A stretch of 63,922 bases of DNA, filler included, from an uncultured bacterium (GTDB lineage Bacteria; CAYJOG01), in assembly GCA_964371695.1 (NCBI GenBank). It is 9 parts of 9 records of this genome, joined end to end, with 100 filler letters (N's around TTAATTAATTAA, not from the genome) between each part and the next. Parts side by side here need not be neighbours in the genome. Positions count along the whole stretch, not along the records: positions 14,393 to 21,444 come from CAYJOG010000145.1; 8 more parts are not named here. One strand, 5' to 3'. Below are positions 14,293-47,492 of the stretch, piece by piece. The translations under genes and the position numbers were made by a program. Position 1 is the first letter of the stretch. Every line of letters starts with the position of its first letter. The notes below the pieces were generated by a model, which saw nothing but the letters and a program-made list of their open reading frames with translations, was not told the origin of the DNA and ran no database searches.

Positions 14293-14393
14293 NNNNNNNN
14301 NNNNNNNNNNNNNNNNNNNNNNNNNNNNNNNNNNNNTTAATTAATTAANNNNNNNNNNNNNNNNNNNNNNNNNNNNNNNNNNNNNNNNNNNNG

Positions 14394-14645
14394 TTTGAAC
14401 AACAGCACCACCCCTACACCCAGGGCCTCTTCCGGTGCCTGCCCCGCCTGAACCAGCGGGTCAACCGGCTTTTCGCCATCGAAGGCGTACCGCCAGACCT
14501 GCGCCAGAACATTCCCGGCTGCCGTTTCGCCCCCCGCTGTCCCCACGTCACCGACCAGTGCCGCCAGTCCGCACCACCCCTGGTCCAGCAGGGCAACCGG
14601 CATGTGCGCTGCTGGCTGGAAGCCCCGCCCGCTGTTTCAGCCTGA
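14394..14645 (+). CDS. C-terminal fragment of an oligopeptide/dipeptide ABC ATPase (oligo_HPY domain)
   Basis: Own translation (not in the ORF track): HPYTQGLFRCLP...IEGVPPDL...GCRFAPRC...C...VRCW. Confidence 0.88.
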   Translation, partial: FEQQHHPYTQGLFRCLPRLNQRVNRLFAIEGVPPDLRQNIPGCRFAPRCPHVTDQCRQSAPPLVQQGNRHVRCWLEAPPAVSA

Positions 14646-14654
14646 AAACACCCG

Positions 14655-15578
14655 TCATCCGCCCTGTTTTTTTCCCAGAAAACAGAACGTGGTGATGCCT
14701 TCGCCCCGAAAGTTCCACCGGGACTTGTCCTGCATGGCCGCCGCCAGATCAAAATCGGGGTTCTCCAGCACCACGCCGCTTTGTGTCAGGGCAGGAACCA
14801 TATCTGTTTTAAGTTCTTCTTCGCTGTAGGCCGACACCACCCTGCCCGCCACTTTTTTCTTGTACCAATCATCGGCAGCGGCGCGGCGGTGATCTGCCGC
14901 TTCGCTGGTGAGATAAAACACACCGCCCGGTTTCAGCACACGGCACATTTCCCTGAGCGCCGTGGTGGTGTCGTGGACAAATGTCTCCACCGGCAGCACC
15001 GCCATGGTCACGGGGTGTTCCTGCAGGTGCTCCAGGGCGCTGATGGATAACACCACGTCAAAGCTGGCATCCGCAAAGGGCAGCGACAGCATGGTGCCCG
15101 CCACCCGCGCCGGGCGGGGAGTTGGCTCTGCGGCGGCAAACGCCGCGTCAAAGGGTGCGGGCAAATCCAGCGTGCTCACGCTGGCCCCCAGGCTGCCCAG
15201 AAAATGCGGAAAGGTGGACCCACCCACCCCCACGTCCAGCACCCGCTTGCCCCGCCAGTCCTGCACATGGCTCAGCAACACGCCATATTCCCACACCCGC
15301 ACCCCTTCCCAGCGAGGCAGGTTCGAGCGCATCTGTCGAGAGAAACGCCGCAGCAATGTGTCAAAAGGAGCCAGATCCTTCAGCCGCCCGCTGTCAAAAA
15401 ACGTGTTGGGCGCAGCCGCCGCCACGGGCCAGGGGTCGGGCGCGGGAGGCAGGGCGTGCAAAACCCGCTGGTCTTCGCGCTCAGCCCTCAGCCGGGCCAC
15501 TTTACCAGCCACACGGTGAATCAGAGGTTTCAGGGGAGCCATGAACAGATGAGATTCTGAGGCAATTTGCTGAAGCAC
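14655..15578 (-). CDS. Class I SAM-dependent methyltransferase
   Basis: RVLDVGVGGS, LPFADASFDVVLSISALEH, RVLKPGG; start uncertain. Confidence 0.88.
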   Translation of the reverse strand: MLQQIASESHLFMAPLKPLIHRVAGKVARLRAEREDQRVLHALPPAPDPWPVAAAAPNTFFDSGRLKDLAPFDTLLRRFSRQMRSNLPRWEGVRVWEYGVLLSHVQDWRGKRVLDVGVGGSTFPHFLGSLGASVSTLDLPAPFDAAFAAAEPTPRPARVAGTMLSLPFADASFDVVLSISALEHLQEHPVTMAVLPVETFVHDTTTALREMCRVLKPGGVFYLTSEAADHRRAAADDWYKKKVAGRVVSAYSEEELKTDMVPALTQSGVVLENPDFDLAAAMQDKSRWNFRGEGITTFCFLGKKQGG

Positions 15579-15632
15579 GTGGGCATTTTTTCGGAATGTT
15601 CAGCGCTGCCGTAAAGGGGGTTGCAGGTATTT

Positions 15633-16811
15633 TTATACCAACAACCTTTTCACAAACCGCTCATGGACCTGGGTGATTTTCTCCCAGCCAAACCGCTCCA
15701 CCACCAACGCGCGGGCGCCCTGCCGCAACCGGGCATAAAGGGCGTCATCCCGGTTTAATTGTGTTATTCCTTCGGCAAAATCCTGGGGGGTGTCGGCCAG
15801 CCACAGGTGTTCGCCGTGCCGCGCCCCCAGCCCCTCGGCCCCCACCGTGGTGCTCACCACCACCCGCCCCGCCGCGAAAGCCTGGAGAATCTTCAGGCGC
15901 GTGCCGCCACCTGAGCGCAGCGGCGCCACCAACAGGCGACAGCTCTGCAAAAAGGGCTTCACCTCAGGCACATCGGCGAACAGCGTGACACCATTCAGTG
16001 AAAGTTTCTCCCGCAGGCCCGGCGGTGGTTTGGACCCCACCACCACCAGGGGGCTATTCACCAGCGGGCGGATTTCATGACACCACCAGTCCAGGGCCTC
16101 GGTGTTGGGGGCATAGTTGAGCGTGCCCATGAAGAGCAATCCCTCGCCGGGTTTTTCTTCAAATGGAAAGGCTGTCAGGTCCACCCCATTGGCCACCACC
16201 ACGGCATTTTGTGGATCACCGCAGGCCACCCCCGCCGGAGCCAGTGCGGCGTCTTCTTCACTCATGAACACACAACCTTGGGCGCTGCGTGCGATGGCCT
16301 CTTCAATTTTCCTCGCCCGGCGGGTGAACAGCGCACGTCGCAACCGACCCTTCAATCCCGTCACGGCCTCCCGCCCATGCACCCGCCAGCGCCAGTCCAC
16401 GAAATGCACCACTACCGGCGCGGGACCGAGCCGGGGCAGCGCAGGCGCACACAGGCTGTGGTGACACTCCACCAGATCATAAACATCCGCAGAAAGACGG
16501 CGACTGATTTCGCCCGGCAGGCCCGTTTGATGAAACAGGCCAAACTCCGGCGGCCCCGACCAAAGTTTGCCCGGCAATGCACTGGCCACCGGGCGCACGG
16601 GAAAATCCTCAAACAGCAGTTCGTTCACCCACTGGCGCACCGTGGCGGCGTGGGCGGCGTCGTCGGGGCTGAAGGGAACCGCCAGGTCCACGTCGGCCCA
16701 CCTGCGGGTGTGCTGCAAAAGGTGATACAGGCGAATCTTCGAGCCGTTGTTCAGCGGCCAGGGCAGGTGCGGCGAGAGCCATAACAAACGGGGCCTGGGC
16801 AAATCAAACAC
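15633..16811 (-). CDS. Glycosyltransferase family 4
   Basis: PWPLNNGSKIR, NGVD, FMGTLNYAPN, PLRSGGGTRLKILQAFAAG. Confidence 0.92.
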   Translation of the reverse strand: MFDLPRPRLLWLSPHLPWPLNNGSKIRLYHLLQHTRRWADVDLAVPFSPDDAAHAATVRQWVNELLFEDFPVRPVASALPGKLWSGPPEFGLFHQTGLPGEISRRLSADVYDLVECHHSLCAPALPRLGPAPVVVHFVDWRWRVHGREAVTGLKGRLRRALFTRRARKIEEAIARSAQGCVFMSEEDAALAPAGVACGDPQNAVVVANGVDLTAFPFEEKPGEGLLFMGTLNYAPNTEALDWWCHEIRPLVNSPLVVVGSKPPPGLREKLSLNGVTLFADVPEVKPFLQSCRLLVAPLRSGGGTRLKILQAFAAGRVVVSTTVGAEGLGARHGEHLWLADTPQDFAEGITQLNRDDALYARLRQGARALVVERFGWEKITQVHERFVKRLLV

Positions 16812-17076
16812 CTGTCATACCAATGAACATTCAAAACAGCATGAATGTTCATTGTTGATGTGGCCTTGCCGTTCGTCGTGAACGGCTGCGGCCCGGCGCA
16901 GCGCAGGCAAAGCCAGCTTGCGCCGCGAACACCTCCGGCGCTGATTGCGCCTCGGTGTTCGAGTCGAATTCATCCATGAATTCATACCAATTCACGTCTC
17001 CTTTTTGCCGTGTTCCCGCTTTTTCTTTCCGGCCAGGGTTTTATACACCGCCTGCCATTTTCCTCTCGAATTGGTA

Positions 17077-17778
17077 TCAATCCGCAATCTGGCCGACTTT
17101 TTCGCGGATGGCGGTGATCAGTTCGCTGATCTCAATCACGGCCATCTGGCTTTTTTCGGCCAGGGCGCGCATTTCGCCCGCCACCACCGAAAAACTCTTG
17201 CCCGCCACGCCGCTGCGGGCGCTCTCGATGCTGGCGTTCAGGGCCAGCATTTTGCTCTGTTTGGCGATTTTGGTGATGGTGTCCAGCATGCGCTGGATGT
17301 CGTGCATGATGTGTTCAAGTTCCTTGAAGTTCAGGTTGGCCCGGCGCAGGCGCTGCCCCAGAAAGGTGATCATGTTGATGCACATCTGGGCGTTTTGGGT
17401 GACCAGATCAAAGAAGTGTTTTTTGTCCAGGCGCAGCACCTCGGTGTCTTCCAGCGCCGTGATGGTGGCCGAGCGCGGCTCGGCGTCGAACAGCGACATC
17501 TCACCAAAAAAGTCCCCCGCCGCCAGGCGGCTGAGAATCGTCTCCATGTGGCTGGCCTCGTCGGTTTTGGCCACTTTCACAAAGCCATTCAAAATGACGT
17601 AAAGGCTGTCGCCGATTTCCCCCTCCCGGAAAATGACCTGCCCCGCCGCGTAATGGAGCGTGTCGGAGACCCCCGCCACCTGGGTCAGCATGTCGTCGGT
17701 CAGGCCGCGAAAAATCGGCACCTGGGCCAGATGATGAACGATGGTTTGTTGTGATTCAGCGGGCAAAGCCTGGGACAT
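17077..17778 (-). CDS. Soluble cNMP-binding domain fused to a short MCP signalling hairpin
   Basis: FFGEMSLFDAEPRSATI, then IAKQSKMLALNASIESARSGVAGKSFSVVAGEMRALAEKS. Confidence 0.85.
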   Translation of the reverse strand: MSQALPAESQQTIVHHLAQVPIFRGLTDDMLTQVAGVSDTLHYAAGQVIFREGEIGDSLYVILNGFVKVAKTDEASHMETILSRLAAGDFFGEMSLFDAEPRSATITALEDTEVLRLDKKHFFDLVTQNAQMCINMITFLGQRLRRANLNFKELEHIMHDIQRMLDTITKIAKQSKMLALNASIESARSGVAGKSFSVVAGEMRALAEKSQMAVIEISELITAIREKVGQIAD

Positions 17779-17787
17779 TGGGAGAGC

Positions 17788-18942
17788 CTATTGTAACAGG
17801 GGGCCTGCGGGCATTCTTTCGCGGTGCCGCGCCGCCCTGGGATGCCCCTTCTTTTTGCCGTGGGCCGCCCGCGAGCTGCCCCCCTCTCCCATCACCGGGG
17901 GCTGATAACCCTTTTGGGGCAACTGGTGAATTTCCCCTTCGGGCAGGTTGCGCACGTCCACCGGCTCCTGGCGTTTGACAAAACGGCGAATGTCCGGCCA
18001 CAGCGACGGCTCCAGAAACAGCACCGAAAGGTGACCGTGGGGATAAATGTGCCGCCGGGGTTTGCCCCAGGCGCGCCACAGCTCCTCTACCACGCTGGCG
18101 GGCACAATGCGGTCGTGCAAAGCCTCCTGAATCAGAATGCGGCTGGTGGGCACGGCTGGTTTGAGTTTGGTGAGGGTGATGTAGGGCAGAAACTCGCTCA
18201 TCACCTGCCAGTGGGCTTTCCAGTCGGGATATTCCTTGCGGATCATCTCGCCCATGCGGTGGCGCAAAAAGAGCCGCTCGGTGTTGCCCGCCGGCACGGT
18301 GAGGATGGCGAAACGCAGGTCGGCGCACAGACAGGCCAGCAGCCCCGTGAGCATGCCCCCCAGGCTCACGCCAAAGGCCCCCACGGTGCCGGGGCCGTTG
18401 CCGTCGCGGCGCAGATAATCCACCAGCCCCCGGGCCTCCATCAGCGTCTGCTGCATGCTCTGAAAGGTGGTGTGGACATGGCCGGTGAAGGTCAGTTCGC
18501 CGCTGAAGGTGCTCTCTGGCGCACGGCTGAGGTGAAAGGGCAGCTCGAACATCATGGCGTTGTAGCCCCAGTCGGCAAACCGCTTGCAGGCCTGCAAAAA
18601 GAACATGTAGTTCTGCACCCGGTAGCCGTGCACAATCAGCACAGAGCCCAGGGGTTTTTCCACCTGGCGAAAATAAACGGCGGGGATGACGTTGTTGCGG
18701 GCGTGCTCGGTGATGACCGGTGAGTGAAACTTGAGCTGGCGCATTTCATAACGGCTGCGCCGCCACACCACCTTGTTTTCCACCGGGTCCATGGCGGGGG
18801 GTTTGGGAAACGCCTCGGCCAGGGAATGGATGACGGGAATGGGTTTGTCGGGAGGCGGCGGCGTCAGGGAAATGTCGGCGCGGTGCTCCCTGCCCATAAA
18901 GAAGTAGCTCATTTCGTCCAGAAAGTTGGCGACGGCTCTCAT
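17788..18942 (-). CDS. Alpha/beta hydrolase
   Basis: HG oxyanion motif, GVSLGG nucleophile elbow, D (HDRIV) and H (PHGH) triad residues. Confidence 0.85.
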   Translation of the reverse strand: MRAVANFLDEMSYFFMGREHRADISLTPPPPDKPIPVIHSLAEAFPKPPAMDPVENKVVWRRSRYEMRQLKFHSPVITEHARNNVIPAVYFRQVEKPLGSVLIVHGYRVQNYMFFLQACKRFADWGYNAMMFELPFHLSRAPESTFSGELTFTGHVHTTFQSMQQTLMEARGLVDYLRRDGNGPGTVGAFGVSLGGMLTGLLACLCADLRFAILTVPAGNTERLFLRHRMGEMIRKEYPDWKAHWQVMSEFLPYITLTKLKPAVPTSRILIQEALHDRIVPASVVEELWRAWGKPRRHIYPHGHLSVLFLEPSLWPDIRRFVKRQEPVDVRNLPEGEIHQLPQKGYQPPVMGEGGSSRAAHGKKKGHPRAARHRERMPAGPLLQ

Positions 18943-18946
18943 GTCT

Positions 18947-19531
18947 TCACTCCCATCCCATGGCTTTCAGTGCAGTGTTCGACCACGTTTCCAGGCGTTC
19001 ATCGCGCCAGTTGAGCTGGCGCGGCGTGACCCAGCGGCCCTCGCGGCCCCCGTCTTCGCTCAGGCGCACCCGCGCCCCGGCGGGCAGGGTGAGCAGAAAA
19101 TGCACCCCAACGTGTACCCGGCTCACGTCGTTGTCGCTGAGCTTGATGAGGCCCGATGGGTGCAAGGCCCCGCAGCCGGGCAAAAGATGGGCTTCTTCCT
19201 CCAACTCACGCCACAGCGCCCCCAGAATCGGGCCTTCTTTGTGGGTTTCGTCCAGGGGGTTCACATGCCCCCCCAGTCCCACGGTGAGGCGTTCGTGCAG
19301 CCGAACTTCGCCCCCGCCAGTGTGACGCTTCAACATATACACCTTATCGGCACGTCGCAGGGTCACATAAGGGATCCACTGCCGCCACGCCGGGTTTGTT
19401 TCGGCCTGCTGGCGAGGCAGAAACTGGCTCTTTTTGAACCACCTGTTGAACGTGGCCTGACTGGGAAGGGGCAGATAACCGTCTTTTTTGCCCAAAAGAG
19501 GGCTGGGCAAGGCCCACACCAGTTCAGCCAT
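18947..19531 (-). CDS. NUDIX-family phosphoesterase
   Basis: AETNPAWRQWIPY, E.RLH, GLGGHVN, WRELEEE, VHVG, LETWS. Confidence 0.85.
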   Translation of the reverse strand: MAELVWALPSPLLGKKDGYLPLPSQATFNRWFKKSQFLPRQQAETNPAWRQWIPYVTLRRADKVYMLKRHTGGGEVRLHERLTVGLGGHVNPLDETHKEGPILGALWRELEEEAHLLPGCGALHPSGLIKLSDNDVSRVHVGVHFLLTLPAGARVRLSEDGGREGRWVTPRQLNWRDERLETWSNTALKAMGWE

Positions 19532-20333
19532 GGAGCATCACCCAGGTCACGCGAGTGGACAACAATAACAAAAATCCCCCGAACAATTTTTTCAACCGGG
19601 CGGCGGGCAGGGCGTTGTTCCACCGCACCCCCCAGTAGGTGGCGAAAATGGCCGAAAGCGCGATCAACAGGCCAAGAACTGGGGCCACCGCCCCCACCAG
19701 CCACAGGCCCGGCGGGGCCAAAACCGGCTGTGCCCCATAGGCGCAGGCCCCCGACAGGGCCATGAGACCAATGATGGCGCTGCTGGTGCCCACCGCCTGA
19801 TGCACCCGGAACCCCAGGGATTTCATGACAGGCACCGTCAAAACACCGCCGCCCAGGCCCGTGAGGGCACTGAAAACCCCTGTAATCAAACCCAGTCCGG
19901 CAAACACGGCACCATTAACATCCGGTGAACAAGCCGGTTCCTCGCCTTTTTTTTCAATGAGCATTTTCAGACCCATCAGAAACATGGCCCCGGCCAACAG
20001 GCCCCGCAGGGTATCGGCCTGCAACCGCTGGCCAAACCACGCCCCAGCCACCGCGCCCATCACCGCCCCCGGCGCCAGACACACCACGGCCCGCACCAGC
20101 ACATTGCCCGACCGGTGCTGACGCCACCCGGCGGCCATGGCCGTGGGGGTCATGGCAAGCAAACTGGTGGCCACGGCCACGCGCTGGGAGACCTCCGCAG
20201 GCAGCCCCCTCGCCCGCAGCAGTTCATCCAGGGCGGGCACCATCACGAACCCCCCACCCACACCCAGTAACGACGAGAGCACCCCCACCACTGCCCCCAG
20301 GCCAAGCAACAGCAGCGCGGTGAGGGGGTCCAT
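19524..20333 (-). CDS. Sulfite exporter TauE/SafE family protein
   Basis: Two repeats of GxGGG...VP and A.(A/G)TS; about 8 TM helices. Confidence 0.9.
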   Translation of the reverse strand: MDPLTALLLLGLGAVVGVLSSLLGVGGGFVMVPALDELLRARGLPAEVSQRVAVATSLLAMTPTAMAAGWRQHRSGNVLVRAVVCLAPGAVMGAVAGAWFGQRLQADTLRGLLAGAMFLMGLKMLIEKKGEEPACSPDVNGAVFAGLGLITGVFSALTGLGGGVLTVPVMKSLGFRVHQAVGTSSAIIGLMALSGACAYGAQPVLAPPGLWLVGAVAPVLGLLIALSAIFATYWGVRWNNALPAARLKKLFGGFLLLLSTRVTWVMLHG

Positions 20334-20365
20334 GAGGAGCGGAATGGTATATGAACACCCGCACC

Positions 20366-20656
20366 GTCATTCCCGCGAAGGCGGGAATCCAGTCAAACAT
20401 AAAAAACACCACATTATTCCCCTCTCCCCTTTACGGGGAGAGGGTGGCCGTAGGCCGGGTAATGGGCGCGGGTTGTCTTTTGGGACTGCGGCAGCATATT
20501 GATTCTGTCAGGCGTGCCCAGCGGCGCGACGGAGTAGGGCGGGTGTCCTCACCCGCCTGAGCGCGAAGCGCGAAACTGCCGGGGTATCCAAAAGCAAAAA
20601 ACCAAATTCCCCTCTCCCCTTTACGGGGAGAGGGTGGCCGTAGGCCGGGTGAGGGG
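20366..20656. repeat. Composite repeat cluster A + [B-D-C] + B upstream of the DUF559 gene
   Basis: A at 20366-20392; identical 45-bp direct repeats at 20416-20460 and 20606-20650; GTAG hairpin at ~20534-20557. Confidence 0.9.
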
Positions 20657-20703
20657 TTTCAAGATAAACCCAAAACCACTGTCTTTTGCTGCAAAATACC
20701 CCC

Positions 20704-21069
20704 ATGGGCCAACGCCCTCCCCATGCACTGGCTTTTTCGCGCCAGCTTCGGCAAGACACCACGGAAGCAGAAAAATACCTGTGGGAGTATTTGCGCAACC
20801 GTCGGGTGTTGGGCGTGAAGTTTCGCCGCCAATATCCGGTGGGAAAATATGTGCTGGATTTTTTCTGTCCGGAGATTGGTCTGGCGGTGGAGATTGATGG
20901 CAGCCAGCATCTTTCTGACGAGGGCCTGACCCACGACCAAAAACGGGATGCGTTTTTGGCTTCGCAGGATATTTTTGTTTTGCGTGTGTTCAACCATGAC
21001 GTGCTGGGAAAAACGGAAGTGGTTCTTCAGGCCATTGCTGCGGAAATTCTTGCCAGGAAGAAGGATTGA
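20704..21069 (+). CDS. DUF559 / Vsr-like restriction-endonuclease-fold protein
   Basis: RQLRQDTTEAEKYLW..LRNRR...KFRRQYPVGKYVLDFFC....LAVEIDGSQH...D.KRD.FL. Confidence 0.92.
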   Translation: MGQRPPHALAFSRQLRQDTTEAEKYLWEYLRNRRVLGVKFRRQYPVGKYVLDFFCPEIGLAVEIDGSQHLSDEGLTHDQKRDAFLASQDIFVLRVFNHDVLGKTEVVLQAIAAEILARKKD

Positions 21070-21080
21070 TTTTGTCTGAA

Positions 21081-21421
21081 CCCCTCACCCGGCTTTCGCG
21101 CTTCGCGCTCAGGCAGGCGGGGACGCCTGCCCTACTGCATCGGCCACCCTCTCCCCGTAAAGGGGAGAGGGTAATGAGGTGAGTTTTTTATTTCAGGCGG
21201 GCGTCCCCGCCCGCTTTCATGAAAAAACGCAGGCGCGATGCCCATCGCTGCTAACTGTTTGCTCAGGAAGGTCGTTTTTACCGCTTCTTTCGATTCCTTC
21301 AAACACCTTTCTTCCCACTGGCGTCACCCCCGCGCAGGCGGGGGTCCAGGTGTTCTTAAGGAAAAAGGTCAAAAACCTTTGTTTTTTGTTTGAACTGGAT
21401 TCCCGCTTTCGCGGGAATGAC
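21081..21421. repeat. Repeat cluster downstream of the DUF559 gene: inverted B carrying a C insert, a C hairpin, and an inverted A pair
   Basis: B reversed at 21081-21171; A at 21323-21349 and 21395-21421. Confidence 0.88.
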
Positions 21422-21561
21422 GGCAGGGTGGCAAAGGTTTGGATNNNNNNNNNNNNNNNNNNNNNNNNNNNNNNNNNNNNNNNNNNNNTTAATTAATTAA
21501 NNNNNNNNNNNNNNNNNNNNNNNNNNNNNNNNNNNNNNNNNNNNATGTTTGCGGGTGGCTC

Positions 21562-21611
21562 TTGACAAAAGGGGCTTCATAAATTAAATTAGCGATGTAT
21601 GTACGTACATC
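21562..21611 (+). promoter_or_regulatory. Sigma70-type promoter and palindromic operator of the TA operon
   Basis: TTGACA(21562)-17 nt-TAAATT(21585); perfect palindrome ATGTACGTACAT at 21599-21610; RBS AAGGAG at 21615. Confidence 0.6.
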
Positions 21612-21625
21612 TAAAAGGAGAAAGA

Positions 21626-21991
21626 ATGTCATACACAAATCCAAAATCGGTTGTTTCGCCCAAAAACCGGCTCGATGATTTAAACGTCCTTTTTGATAAA
21701 GGGCAGGGAGGCTGGTCTCTTGCCCAGTTCACATGGGATGGGGAGGAGGGGTGTCTTGGCTTGCGCTGGAATGGTGACGAAAAGAGTGCAGGGAACCCTC
21801 AATCCAGAAGGCCGACCTGGTTTGTGGTTCCAAAAGAGCTTGCGCCGGCACTGCGCCAAGCGATAAAAAGCATCAAGGCACAGGCGCAATCGGACCTCAT
21901 GGCGGGTTATGCCGGAATGGCCGCTGATACAGGCCGCGAACAGGAAGCCCAGGAATGGTCTGAAAATCTGCTCAAAGATGCCACCGAATGA
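21626..21991 (+). CDS. Putative antitoxin: uncharacterised N-terminal domain plus MazF-binding-type acidic tail
   Basis: ATGA overlap with the toxin gene; C-terminus DLMAGYAGMAADTGREQEAQEWSE resembles tails of PemK/MazF antitoxins. Confidence 0.7.
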   Translation: MSYTNPKSVVSPKNRLDDLNVLFDKGQGGWSLAQFTWDGEEGCLGLRWNGDEKSAGNPQSRRPTWFVVPKELAPALRQAIKSIKAQAQSDLMAGYAGMAADTGREQEAQEWSENLLKDATE

Positions 21992-22314
21992 AGCGTGGTG
22001 AGGTGTGGTGGGTTTCGTTTGACGCATCCCTGGGTGGCGAAATCAAAAAAACACGCCCGGCGGTGATTGTGAGCAACGACGCCGCCAACATGCATCTGAA
22101 CCGTGTGGTGGTAGTGCCGCTTTCCAGTCAGGTGGCCAGAATTTTTCCTGCCGAGGCGTTGGTGAAGATGGGAGAAACCCCCGGCAAGGCCATGGCAGAC
22201 CAGATCATGACGGCAGACAAAAAACGCCTCATTTCAAAAATGGGGATTCTGTCTCATGAAGACATGGCCGGTGTGGAAAACGCCTTGCTGCTGCACCTTG
22301 GCATGAAGCGATGA
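21988..22314 (+). CDS. mazF: PemK/MazF-family toxin
   Basis: MKRGEVWWVSFD...GGEIKKTRPAVIVSND..N......VVPLSS...KAMADQIMTADKKRL. Confidence 0.95.
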   Translation: MKRGEVWWVSFDASLGGEIKKTRPAVIVSNDAANMHLNRVVVVPLSSQVARIFPAEALVKMGETPGKAMADQIMTADKKRLISKMGILSHEDMAGVENALLLHLGMKR

Positions 22315-35250: not shown

Positions 35251-35689
35251 GGTGGCGCAGGCATCCTGCCTGCGTGAAAAAAAGGAAAAAACACCTTATT
35301 TCCTCTCCCCTTTACGGGGAGAGGGTGGCCGAAGGCCGGGTAATGGGCGCGGGGGGGCTTTTGGGATTGCGGCAGCATATTGATGCTGCCGGGTGCGCCC
35401 AGCGGCACGACAGTGCCGGGGTCAAACATGGGCAAAAAATCCAAACAGAAATTTGATTTTATGCTTTTGATTTTACCCCTCACCCCAACCCTCTCCCCAG
35501 TGGGGGAGAGGGGGTCAATCAAGTCCTCTGGAATGTTCTCGCCGCCGTTTTGAGTATACAAACCTTTAATTGCTTTATTGCTTGAGGCGGGCGAGGACGC
35601 CCGCCCCACTAACAACGCACAGCTTTCTTTCTCAGTGGGGCAGGCGTCCCGCCTGCCTTTTATATGAACGCAGGCAAGATGCCTGCGCC
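35251..35689. repeat. Repeat cluster C + [B-D] + inverted B + C pairs running into the contig end
   Basis: B-D at ~35300-35420 matches 20420-20530; reversed B at ~35477-35511. Confidence 0.85.
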
Positions 35690-47173: not shown

Positions 47174-47492
47174 GCGGGAATCCAGATCAAAACAAAAACC
47201 ACCTTATTCCCCTCTCCCCGTAAAGGGGAGAGGGTGGTTTCTGCCGTAGCGCAGCGCAGGCAGAAACCGGGTGAGGGGTTTAACAGAAAGCAAAAAACCA
47301 AACAGAGGTTTGTGCTTTTTATTTGAACTCCGGCTGTTTCGCGCTTCGCGCTCAGGCAGGCGAGACGCCCGCCCTACTAGTTCGCGCCGCTGGGCGCGCC
47401 CGGCAGCATCAATATGCTGCCGCATCCCCAAAAGACCACCCGCGCCCATTATCCGACCTGCGGCCACCTTCTCCCCGTAAAGGGGAGAAGGG
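47174..47492. repeat. Repeat cluster: half A + B + inverted [B-D-C]
   Basis: Reverse complement of ~47326-47492 aligns end to end with 20420-20584. Confidence 0.88.

Follow-up and report, generated by a model that had tools for sequence, protein, structure and literature searches.

A DUF559 nuclease gene framed by inward-facing BoxC/PIT/triplex-motif repeats: a candidate gene-repeat partnership of REPIN/RAYT-like layout

Introduction

Here we describe a short cassette in the draft genome of an uncultured bacterium (GenBank assembly GCA_964371695.1), in which a gene for a DUF559 protein, a predicted nuclease, lies between inward-facing copies of a dispersed repeat. The stretch of this genome that we analysed, 63,922 nucleotides (nt) with filler included, is referred to below as the window. 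The repeat belongs with the BoxC/PIT or triplex-motif (TM) repeats, which have been known since the 1990s and to which no origin, function or enzyme has been assigned (PMC4666352). The TM consensus is CCCTCNCCC-N3-6-GGGNGAGGG-N3-GGGNGAGGG, with 23 copies in Escherichia coli MG1655, five in inverted pairs (Holder 2015, PMC4666352). According to the same paper the motif occurs in more than 260 genomes, its single strand forms a triplex in vitro (E. coli motif), and it is linked to raised local variability or genome instability, with no known function. Furthermore, TM repeats were not found with transposons, phages or plasmids, and in that paper the word 'endonuclease' is absent and no partner enzyme is named.

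The arrangement of the cassette recalls a second described system, that of the REPINs and RAYTs, in which the RAYT is thought to serve the REPINs (PMC3116915; PMC3337134; bioRxiv 10.1101/2022.05.22.493013). As described in these sources, the gene is flanked by inverted copies of a repeat that is also dispersed as gene-free doublets with a spacer, and it is low in copy number and can be vertically inherited over long times. The cassette shares the flanking copies and the dispersed doublets, and its gene may likewise be of low copy number and vertically inherited. However, its enzyme is a predicted PD-(D/E)XK Vsr-fold hydrolase and not an HUH Y1 tyrosine transposase, its repeat is a three-block mirror motif and not a simple hairpin of the repetitive extragenic palindromic (REP) type, and the genome holds four divergent paralogs. 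By analogy, we regard the cassette as REPIN/RAYT-like in layout and evolutionary behaviour, and not as a member of that family. With insertion sequences and miniature inverted-repeat transposable elements it has in common terminal inverted repeats of about 45-50 nt and short gene-free derivatives with the same ends and subterminal sequence, but it carries no known transposase family (DUF559 only) and has no near-identical gene-bearing copies, and no target-site duplication was found.

The enzyme gene itself belongs to DUF559. To our knowledge this family is very large and includes a protein of solved structure, but hardly any function has been assigned to it. E. coli YcjD, the Neisseria gonorrhoeae 'endonuclease-like protein' (PDB 3HRL), Vsr and Caulobacter VsrA share its Pfam family or fold group, but differ from the present case in having no described link to repeats. 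The homing endonuclease I-Bth0305I resides in a phage group I intron. Its Vsr-like (EDxHD) catalytic core (PDB 3R3P) is related and its context is that of a selfish gene (PMC3424549), whereas the cassette described here is intergenic and bounded by repeats. For VsrA, a DUF559 protein, a role in T:G mismatch repair has been proposed, as a nuclease with a functional link to a cytosine methyltransferase (PMC12907096). In addition, DUF559 proteins are over-represented in a set of predicted inversion targets (odds ratio 14.3; PMC9881135), because, as it now appears, their genes have flanking inverted repeats.

We favour, with moderate confidence, the reading that this locus represents a gene-repeat partnership of the REPIN/RAYT kind that uses a different class of enzyme, with a gene that is long-resident and under purifying selection and whose ends are the repeat that elsewhere in the genome forms gene-free inverted doublets and single hairpins. 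In the literature outside subscription journals and supplements we found no paper tying DUF559 to BoxC/TM repeats, and a partnership of the two across phyla appears to be undescribed. Repeat and gene are each known as orphan families; it is their link that is new.

Results

The cassette and its dispersed repeat

The cassette measures about 570 bp (window 20606-21172) and consists of a 121-amino-acid (aa) DUF559 gene framed by inward-facing copies of a repeat that we call B (Table 1). Contig C145, which takes up window 14393-21444, holds it close to its right end at 21444. The window joins nine contigs of about 7 kb through N spacers, and neighbouring parts need not adjoin in the genome; the source assembly comprises 3.43 Mb in 672 contigs (61% G+C, 83% complete). 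A first-pass annotation of the window had placed the open reading frame (ORF) between inward-facing B copies, with further copies of repeats A, B and C stacked on both sides, and this layout was confirmed in full. The gene-free B copies that it had listed at 1-28, 35300, 35477, 47209, 47452 and 56983 are all real, and the two inward-facing pairs among them do lack a gene between their copies. It had described B as a dispersed palindrome family; what escaped it was the identity of B with the published BoxC/PIT/TM repeats.

B begins with a hairpin of 10 bp (CCCCTCTCCCC, loop, GGGGAGAGGG), the 5' arm of which is made up of pyrimidines only; a linker and a third purine block, GGGTGAGGGG, follow. 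It thus fits the TM consensus and is a member of that orphan repeat family, with which it also shares an intergenic position and frequent inverted pairs. The left end of the cassette matches the consensus except that its linker is 14 nt long, a 5-bp mini-hairpin (TGGCCGTAGGCCG) followed by the third block GGTGAGGGG, and it stops 46-48 nt 5' of the DUF559 ATG. The right end begins 12 nt 3' of the stop codon, with its third block at 21081-21090 and its hairpin at 21147-21172. Within its linker sits a 49-nt module, C, which, from the alignment, would replace or expand the linker hairpin. As linker hairpins differ in length across copies, C may be an expanded linker; an independent insertion of C into B is also possible.

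When the three-block pattern was searched for with linkers of 2-16 nt allowed, the genome gave 51 exact matches and the reversed pattern none, which excludes chance; run on MG1655, the same pattern returned 23 copies, the published count. The published linker length of 3 nt is seen in 29 of these 51 matches (TTG). Here the family departs from the published description, as 20 copies (about 40%) have the 14-nt mini-hairpin instead, and as there is a second subfamily with a linker hairpin of 32-35 nt. This subfamily, X, has 80 copies closed by a G-C pair, and in 51 of the 80 the third block stands 32-35 nt past the hairpin, while subfamily Y, with the 10-bp stem, has 201 copies. With one substitution per arm allowed, there are 331 hairpin cores in the genome. 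As many as 110 of these lie within 300 nt of a contig end, although only 11.8% of the genome falls in that zone. The repeats thus cause breaks in the assembly, and 331 is a lower bound.

Neighbouring oriented copies form 23 inward-facing, 9 outward-facing and no tandem pairs, and the gene-free inward doublet predominates: in 20 of the 23 inward pairs the copies are 78-103 nt apart with no gene between them, each pair measuring about 140 nt, while two pairs with gaps of 469 and 472 nt hold DUF559 genes. The doublet spacer has an A-rich half followed by a T-rich half, resembling the leader and trailer of the cassette, and a word like TTTTGTTTGA stands 3' of all four DUF559 genes of the genome, just before the inverted third block. 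Homology of B reaches about 17 nt past the hairpin, in two end types. The doublets frequently adjoin other hairpin families, which gives them the look of mosaic arrays.

Association of DUF559 genes with TM repeats

All four DUF559 genes of the genome carry TM repeats, three of them (on C145, C565 and C154) on both sides and inward-facing, and the fourth (on C157) as three copies downstream. The C157 gene is flanked by the G-C-closed subfamily X and the other three by the 10-bp-stem subfamily Y; thus, both major subfamilies are represented at the ends of at least one DUF559 gene. None of the three Y1_Tnp genes of the genome has a B copy within 1.5 kb, so that a RAYT flanked by B, which the first-pass annotation had named as evidence against its proposal, was not seen. 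Two G11C11 palindromes lie about 100-200 nt from one of these Y1_Tnp genes (locus L005, 1284-1391; contig C29 of G000) and may be that gene's own REP-type partner. To look for rival genes we took 34 hairpin pairs enclosing 250-3000 nt; among 11 ORFs scanned from nine of these pairs there was no other recurring protein family, the single family match being a peroxiredoxin. Inserts of about 400 nt between hairpin pairs are repeat mosaics.

The association extends well beyond this genome. One genome per species was scanned for relatives of the gene, and the best 80 loci of at least 573 relatives were kept. These span Gamma-, Beta- and Alphaproteobacteria, Chloroflexota, Verrucomicrobiota, Nitrospirota, Planctomycetota, Patescibacteria and one Bathyarchaeia bin; they are partly orthologous or related, and counts over loci or ends are not independent. 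The 250 nt upstream of each gene were aligned to the reverse complement of the 250 nt downstream, with segments 650-900 nt away as controls. A score of at least 30 was reached at 50 of 75 testable loci as against 1 of 67 controls, and a score of at least 40 at 39 of 75 as against none of 67. The enrichment of B-type hairpins beside DUF559 homologs that had been predicted from the window alone was borne out: a hairpin with a 9-nt all-pyrimidine arm lies within 200 nt upstream at 71 of 80 loci and downstream at 60 of 74 (far flanks, 4/76 and 2/71). The ends vary by lineage, but the three-block plan is kept, including in distant phyla.

A predicted correlation with B copy number also held at the level of whole genomes, in a broad sample of 400 whose kinship to the source genome is only at domain level. 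At E<=1e-15, 91 of the 400 have a DUF559 match; the gene was present in 23 of the 39 genomes with at least five exact TM copies and in 68 of the remaining 361 (odds ratio 6.2, Fisher 2.5e-7). In this sample the gene is directly adjacent to a TM repeat in G034:C7 and G247:C21 and, on both sides, in G295:C18 and G277:C80.

Evidence of selection for a folded strand

The mini-hairpin linkers occur in 10 distinct versions with 50 pairs in all; every pair but one is of the Watson-Crick type, and compensatory changes are seen. When the third block was compared with the purine arm at 103 informative ends, the mirror arrangement fitted better at 72, the direct arrangement at 5, and 26 were tied. For example, GGGAGAAGG is accompanied by GGATGAGGG, and GGGGGAGGG by GGGTGGGGG. 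This preference holds in at least four distinct lineage variants. Taken together, the covariation and the mirror symmetry point to selection for a folded single strand, and not for a binding word in duplex DNA.

The DUF559 protein and its paralogs

The ORF at 20704-21069 matches PF04480 with 110 bits (cut-off 20.6), and the other three paralogs score 107-115 bits. The residues D52, E63, D65 and H69, which are presumably catalytic, are invariant across the four paralogs. The closest solved relative is chain A of PDB 3HRL (E 1.5e-19, residues 20-112), and 3hrl, Vsr (1cw0) and DUF559 are grouped together in PMC3424549. Against the YcjD model NF007294 the protein scores 87.9 bits, under that model's cut-off of 218 bits. 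PADLOC gave weak partial matches only (DpdF, mREase_II) and, for one of the four paralogs, a weak match to 'HEase' (E 0.0018). Ratios of nonsynonymous to synonymous substitution (dN/dS) of 0.04-0.17 in 12 of 12 pairs indicate that the gene is under purifying selection.

In the Xanthomonadaceae the cassette occupies one syntenic locus across the genera Pseudoxanthomonas, Luteimonas and Lysobacter, where the flanks are 67-90% and the ORF 66-80% identical, synonymous sites are saturated and the ends are nearly unchanged; this argues that the cassette has been inherited vertically at this place for a long time, its protein and its ends both being constrained. Four ORF pairs (L046/L056, L020/L079, L016/L027 and L028/L060) share about 80% DNA identity within unrelated flanks, so that transfer, relocation or old paralogy must occur as well. 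The highest number of DUF559 matches in any genome examined, 14, was in a Gallionella bin (G045, the genome of locus L020).

ycjD and doublet alleles in E. coli

Of 5426 complete E. coli genomes, 3378 carry the family member ycjD; the median copy number is one and the maximum two. It sits at the fabI-sapF site in strains without the eefRABCD operon (PMC12817139). In MG1655 the ycjD reading frame ends within a degenerate hairpin, and number 9 of the 23 TM copies lies about 170 nt downstream. Between the gene and this TM copy there is a partial second copy of about the last 50 nt of ycjD (L088, 1440-1700), a remnant that may stem from an earlier rearrangement or from a second cassette that has since decayed.

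Filled and empty sites, which the first-pass annotation had proposed to look for in related genomes, were found for a gene-free doublet and not for the cassette. At the doublet between hrpB and mrcB, 40 spread E. coli entries comprised 24 with the full doublet, 13 without about 102 nt, two collapsed to one hairpin through a 64-nt loss, and one partial plasmid match. In the collapsed allele of E. coli O111:H8 (L114, compared with L112), the 64 nt between the outer arms have been lost, and single hairpins that lack a third block could simply arise in this way. Thus, doublets are gained or lost as units and can collapse to lone hairpins. An E. coli strain without this doublet still has ycjD and 21 TM copies, and this comparison within E. 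coli is therefore uninformative.

Cassette alleles in other genomes and public runs

At the Pseudomonas locus L041 a clean empty site was looked for and not found: the cassette fills the gap between the stops of two convergent genes, and at this site the nearest genomes hold a repeat-protein gene (G064) and a 1.8-kb stretch (G089). Four public runs, all with contigs from one study, gave no evidence of excision or inversion of the cassette. Joints in these runs that skip about 1000 nt were rejected as excisions, being other copies of palindrome A with different loops, and a joint from 20658 to 21147, the shorter side of which measures 28 nt, is probably derived from some other doublet. The cassette was seen in the public contigs as unitigs of 407-480 nt.

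Other features of the locus

The coordinates of the features are collected in Table 1. A promoter scan of the cassette leader found no promoter-like sites, the count of terminators in a scan of the locus was not above chance, and an Rfam scan gave nothing near gathering score. In the outer upstream B copy the third block is degenerate (GGGTAATGGG) and continues into a module of about 70 nt, D (GTAATGGGCGCGGG...CAGCATATTGATGCTG...GCGCGAC), at 20459-20530. The B+D unit was found again at 35300 and 47452 (D at 35339-35410 and 47385-47455) and in loci L103 and L104; D is always joined to the B hairpin on the linker side, where it replaces the third block. Repeat C has 44 matches in 41 contigs.

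Repeat A, a palindrome of the form ATTCCCGC-loop-GCGGGAAT with an A-rich tail, has 211 blastn-short matches in 145 contigs and is about as abundant as B. It may resemble the Neisseria dRS3 repeat (ATTCCC-N8-GGGAAT). Its summed contig depth was 450-2000 in the four runs, which are from sediment, and many sediment organisms therefore carry it.

Two hydrolase-like genes also lie upstream of the DUF559 locus on C145. At the start of contig C146 (window 21599-22314) there is a PemK/MazF-like toxin gene (21988-22314; PF02452, E 6.4e-26), which is overlapped by 4 nt by the end of a 130-aa ORF that has no Pfam match and is probably the antitoxin.

Table 1. Features of the DUF559 locus and of two gene-free repeat pairs (window coordinates)
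Feature	Position	Strand	Description
TauE-family exporter gene	19524-20333	-	Upstream of the cassette locus
Repeat A, left copy	20364-20405		Palindrome TTCCCGCGAAGGCGGGAA with A-rich tail; outermost inverted pair with 21382-21423, 42 nt, 86% complementary
Outer upstream B/TM copy	20416-20466	+	96% to 20606-20656; hairpin and mini-hairpin intact
Repeat C, inverted copy	20527-20575	-	86% complementary to 21094-21142
Cassette left end, B/TM repeat	20606-20658	+	Hairpin CCCCTCTCCCC-TTTAC-GGGGAGAGGG
Leader	20659-20703	+	A-rich; similar to left half of gene-free doublet spacer
DUF559 gene, 121 aa	20704-21069	+	PF04480, E 6.9e-32; predicted Vsr-like PD-(D/E)XK nuclease fold
Trailer TTTTGTCTGAA	21070-21080	+	T-rich; similar word 3' of the stop in all four paralogs; corresponds to right half of doublet spacers
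Cassette right end, inverted B/TM repeat	21081-21172	-	Inverted-match blocks 93% and 90%
Repeat C module, 49 nt	21094-21142	+	Inside linker of right B; 100% to reference, other C copy 88%
Repeat A, right copy	21382-21423		21 nt from contig end
Gene-free inward B/TM pair	35300-35511		Left copy with D module; right copy of short-linker type
Gene-free inward B/TM pair	47209-47492		Left copy with long-stem linker; right copy with C and D modules

Discussion

In this work we have linked two orphan families, and DUF559 emerges as a candidate partner enzyme for the TM repeats. The idea of a REPIN/RAYT-like partnership with an enzyme of another class is strengthened because the non-coding parts of the cassette are homologous to the doublets, because the association of gene and repeat is both specific and broad, and because the protein is under selection. 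As to mechanism, each end of the cassette would fold when single-stranded, into a hairpin with a third strand or with a linker hairpin; the DUF559 nuclease would recognise and nick the folded end, and host replication or repair would then copy, maintain or remove doublets. The scheme parallels the one proposed for RAYTs and REPINs, with a hydrolytic Vsr-fold enzyme in place of the transposase. A more specific and distinctly more tentative proposal is that DUF559 proteins are the missing enzymes behind the pan-bacterial BoxC/PIT/TM repeats, recognising a three-stranded structure, or one made of a hairpin and a third strand, both at the ends of their own cassette and at the dispersed doublets, and driving the copying or upkeep of the latter.

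Several observations weigh against such a partnership, or at least against a strict form of it. The four paralogs of this genome are only 48-64% identical and are not recent copies; no target-site duplication is visible at 18 doublets, although the true ends of the element are uncertain there, or between the filled and empty hrpB-mrcB alleles; and no clean empty cassette allele was found at the Pseudomonas L041 locus in the nearest genomes. The first-pass annotation had cast the nuclease as a putative autonomous partner, and it is this part of its REP/RAYT-like interpretation, a mobilising role, that lacks support, whereas the layout itself, with the enrichment, the genome-level link, the doublets and the lack of B at Y1 genes, has stood. 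Moreover, the genome-level statistics ignore shared ancestry and base composition, and 2048 of the 5426 complete E. coli genomes lack ycjD, though the chromosomes counted (n = 2) carry about 21-23 TM copies. Genomes rich in B and devoid of DUF559, which the same annotation had named as a refutation, do occur in part: 16 of the 39 TM-rich genomes gave no DUF559 at E<=1e-15, among them G118 with 157 copies and G452 with 118. On re-checking at E<=0.01, a frameshifted DUF559 gene beside another variant of the hairpin came to light in G452, weak hits in unrelated-looking contexts were obtained for G118 and G197, and G119 and G307 gave no DUF559 match. Nearly all of these genomes are drafts, most of them in 130-370 contigs, and a 0.5-kb cassette between high-copy repeats forms a short piece that is easily dropped from an assembly, so that absence in drafts is weak evidence. 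However, this caveat does not cover G119, which has 30 contigs and 88% completeness, and the exceptions to a strict dependence of TM repeats on DUF559 stand.

The main rival is a homing explanation, in which the doublets spread by some other route and serve as landing pads, while DUF559 is a selfish cassette: the nuclease would cleave gene-free doublets, and repair that uses a filled doublet as template would place the gene at their centre. That the ORF occupies the position of the doublet spacer, with a leader and trailer resembling the spacer halves, fits this well, as do the Vsr-like core of a homing endonuclease grouped with DUF559 (PMC3424549), the weak 'HEase' match of one paralog, the four ORF pairs of about 80% DNA identity in unrelated flanks and the existence of TM-rich genomes without DUF559. 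We nevertheless lean against active homing and consider it unlikely, given that the paralogs within the genome are old, that ycjD is single-copy in E. coli though K-12 has five doublets, that the Xanthomonadaceae cassette is fixed at one locus across genera, and that no filled and empty cassette pair was seen. We find it more doubtful still that the hairpins are cis-acting signals that serve the gene itself, as an operator for autoregulation, an mRNA stabiliser or insulator, or a terminator, with the dispersed copies independent of it. The hairpins do directly adjoin start and stop in most loci, the leader lacks a promoter-like site, and the folded strand for which covariation argues could be RNA; but such a role leaves unexplained both the genome-level association and the hundreds of gene-free inverted doublets whose spacers are homologous to leader and trailer. 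In addition, earlier work cited in PMC4666352 describes PIT elements without promoter or terminator activity, and the mirror symmetry of the third block fits a purine-motif DNA triplex, which according to that paper cannot form in RNA.

It seems very improbable that the gene inverts by means of its inverted repeats, of about 45 nt, and that the nuclease is switched on and off in this way. The enrichment of DUF559 genes among inversion targets is a consequence of these flanking repeats; the four runs contained no contig of the inverted form, their one 'opposite strands' joint being located in repeat A; and the gene-free doublets would remain unexplained. We give hardly any credence to a mere coincidence at a repeat hotspot, where intergenic hairpin mosaics gather all repeats and DUF559 happens to lie inside one. 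The locus is indeed a mosaic of A, B, C and D, and doublets often adjoin other hairpin families; yet a hairpin accompanies 4/4 paralogs and 71/80 upstream flanks as against 4/76 controls, the orientation is constantly inward-facing with an identical layout in distant phyla, and the flank alignment, hairpin enrichment and genome-level association all contradict coincidence.

In summary, a partnership between DUF559 and TM repeats that spans phyla would give both orphans a testable role and would add a second enzyme class to the vertically inherited intragenomic replicators of the REPIN/RAYT type. It would also explain the odd proline- and glycine-rich extensions annotated on DUF559 genes, as well as their flagging as inversion targets. 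For genome projects, it means that cassettes of this kind are easily lost from draft assemblies. If the more tentative proposal made above is true, genomes would harbour a second class of long-lived, RAYT-like replicators, independent of the first, and the first such class with a DNA triplex as its recognition element.

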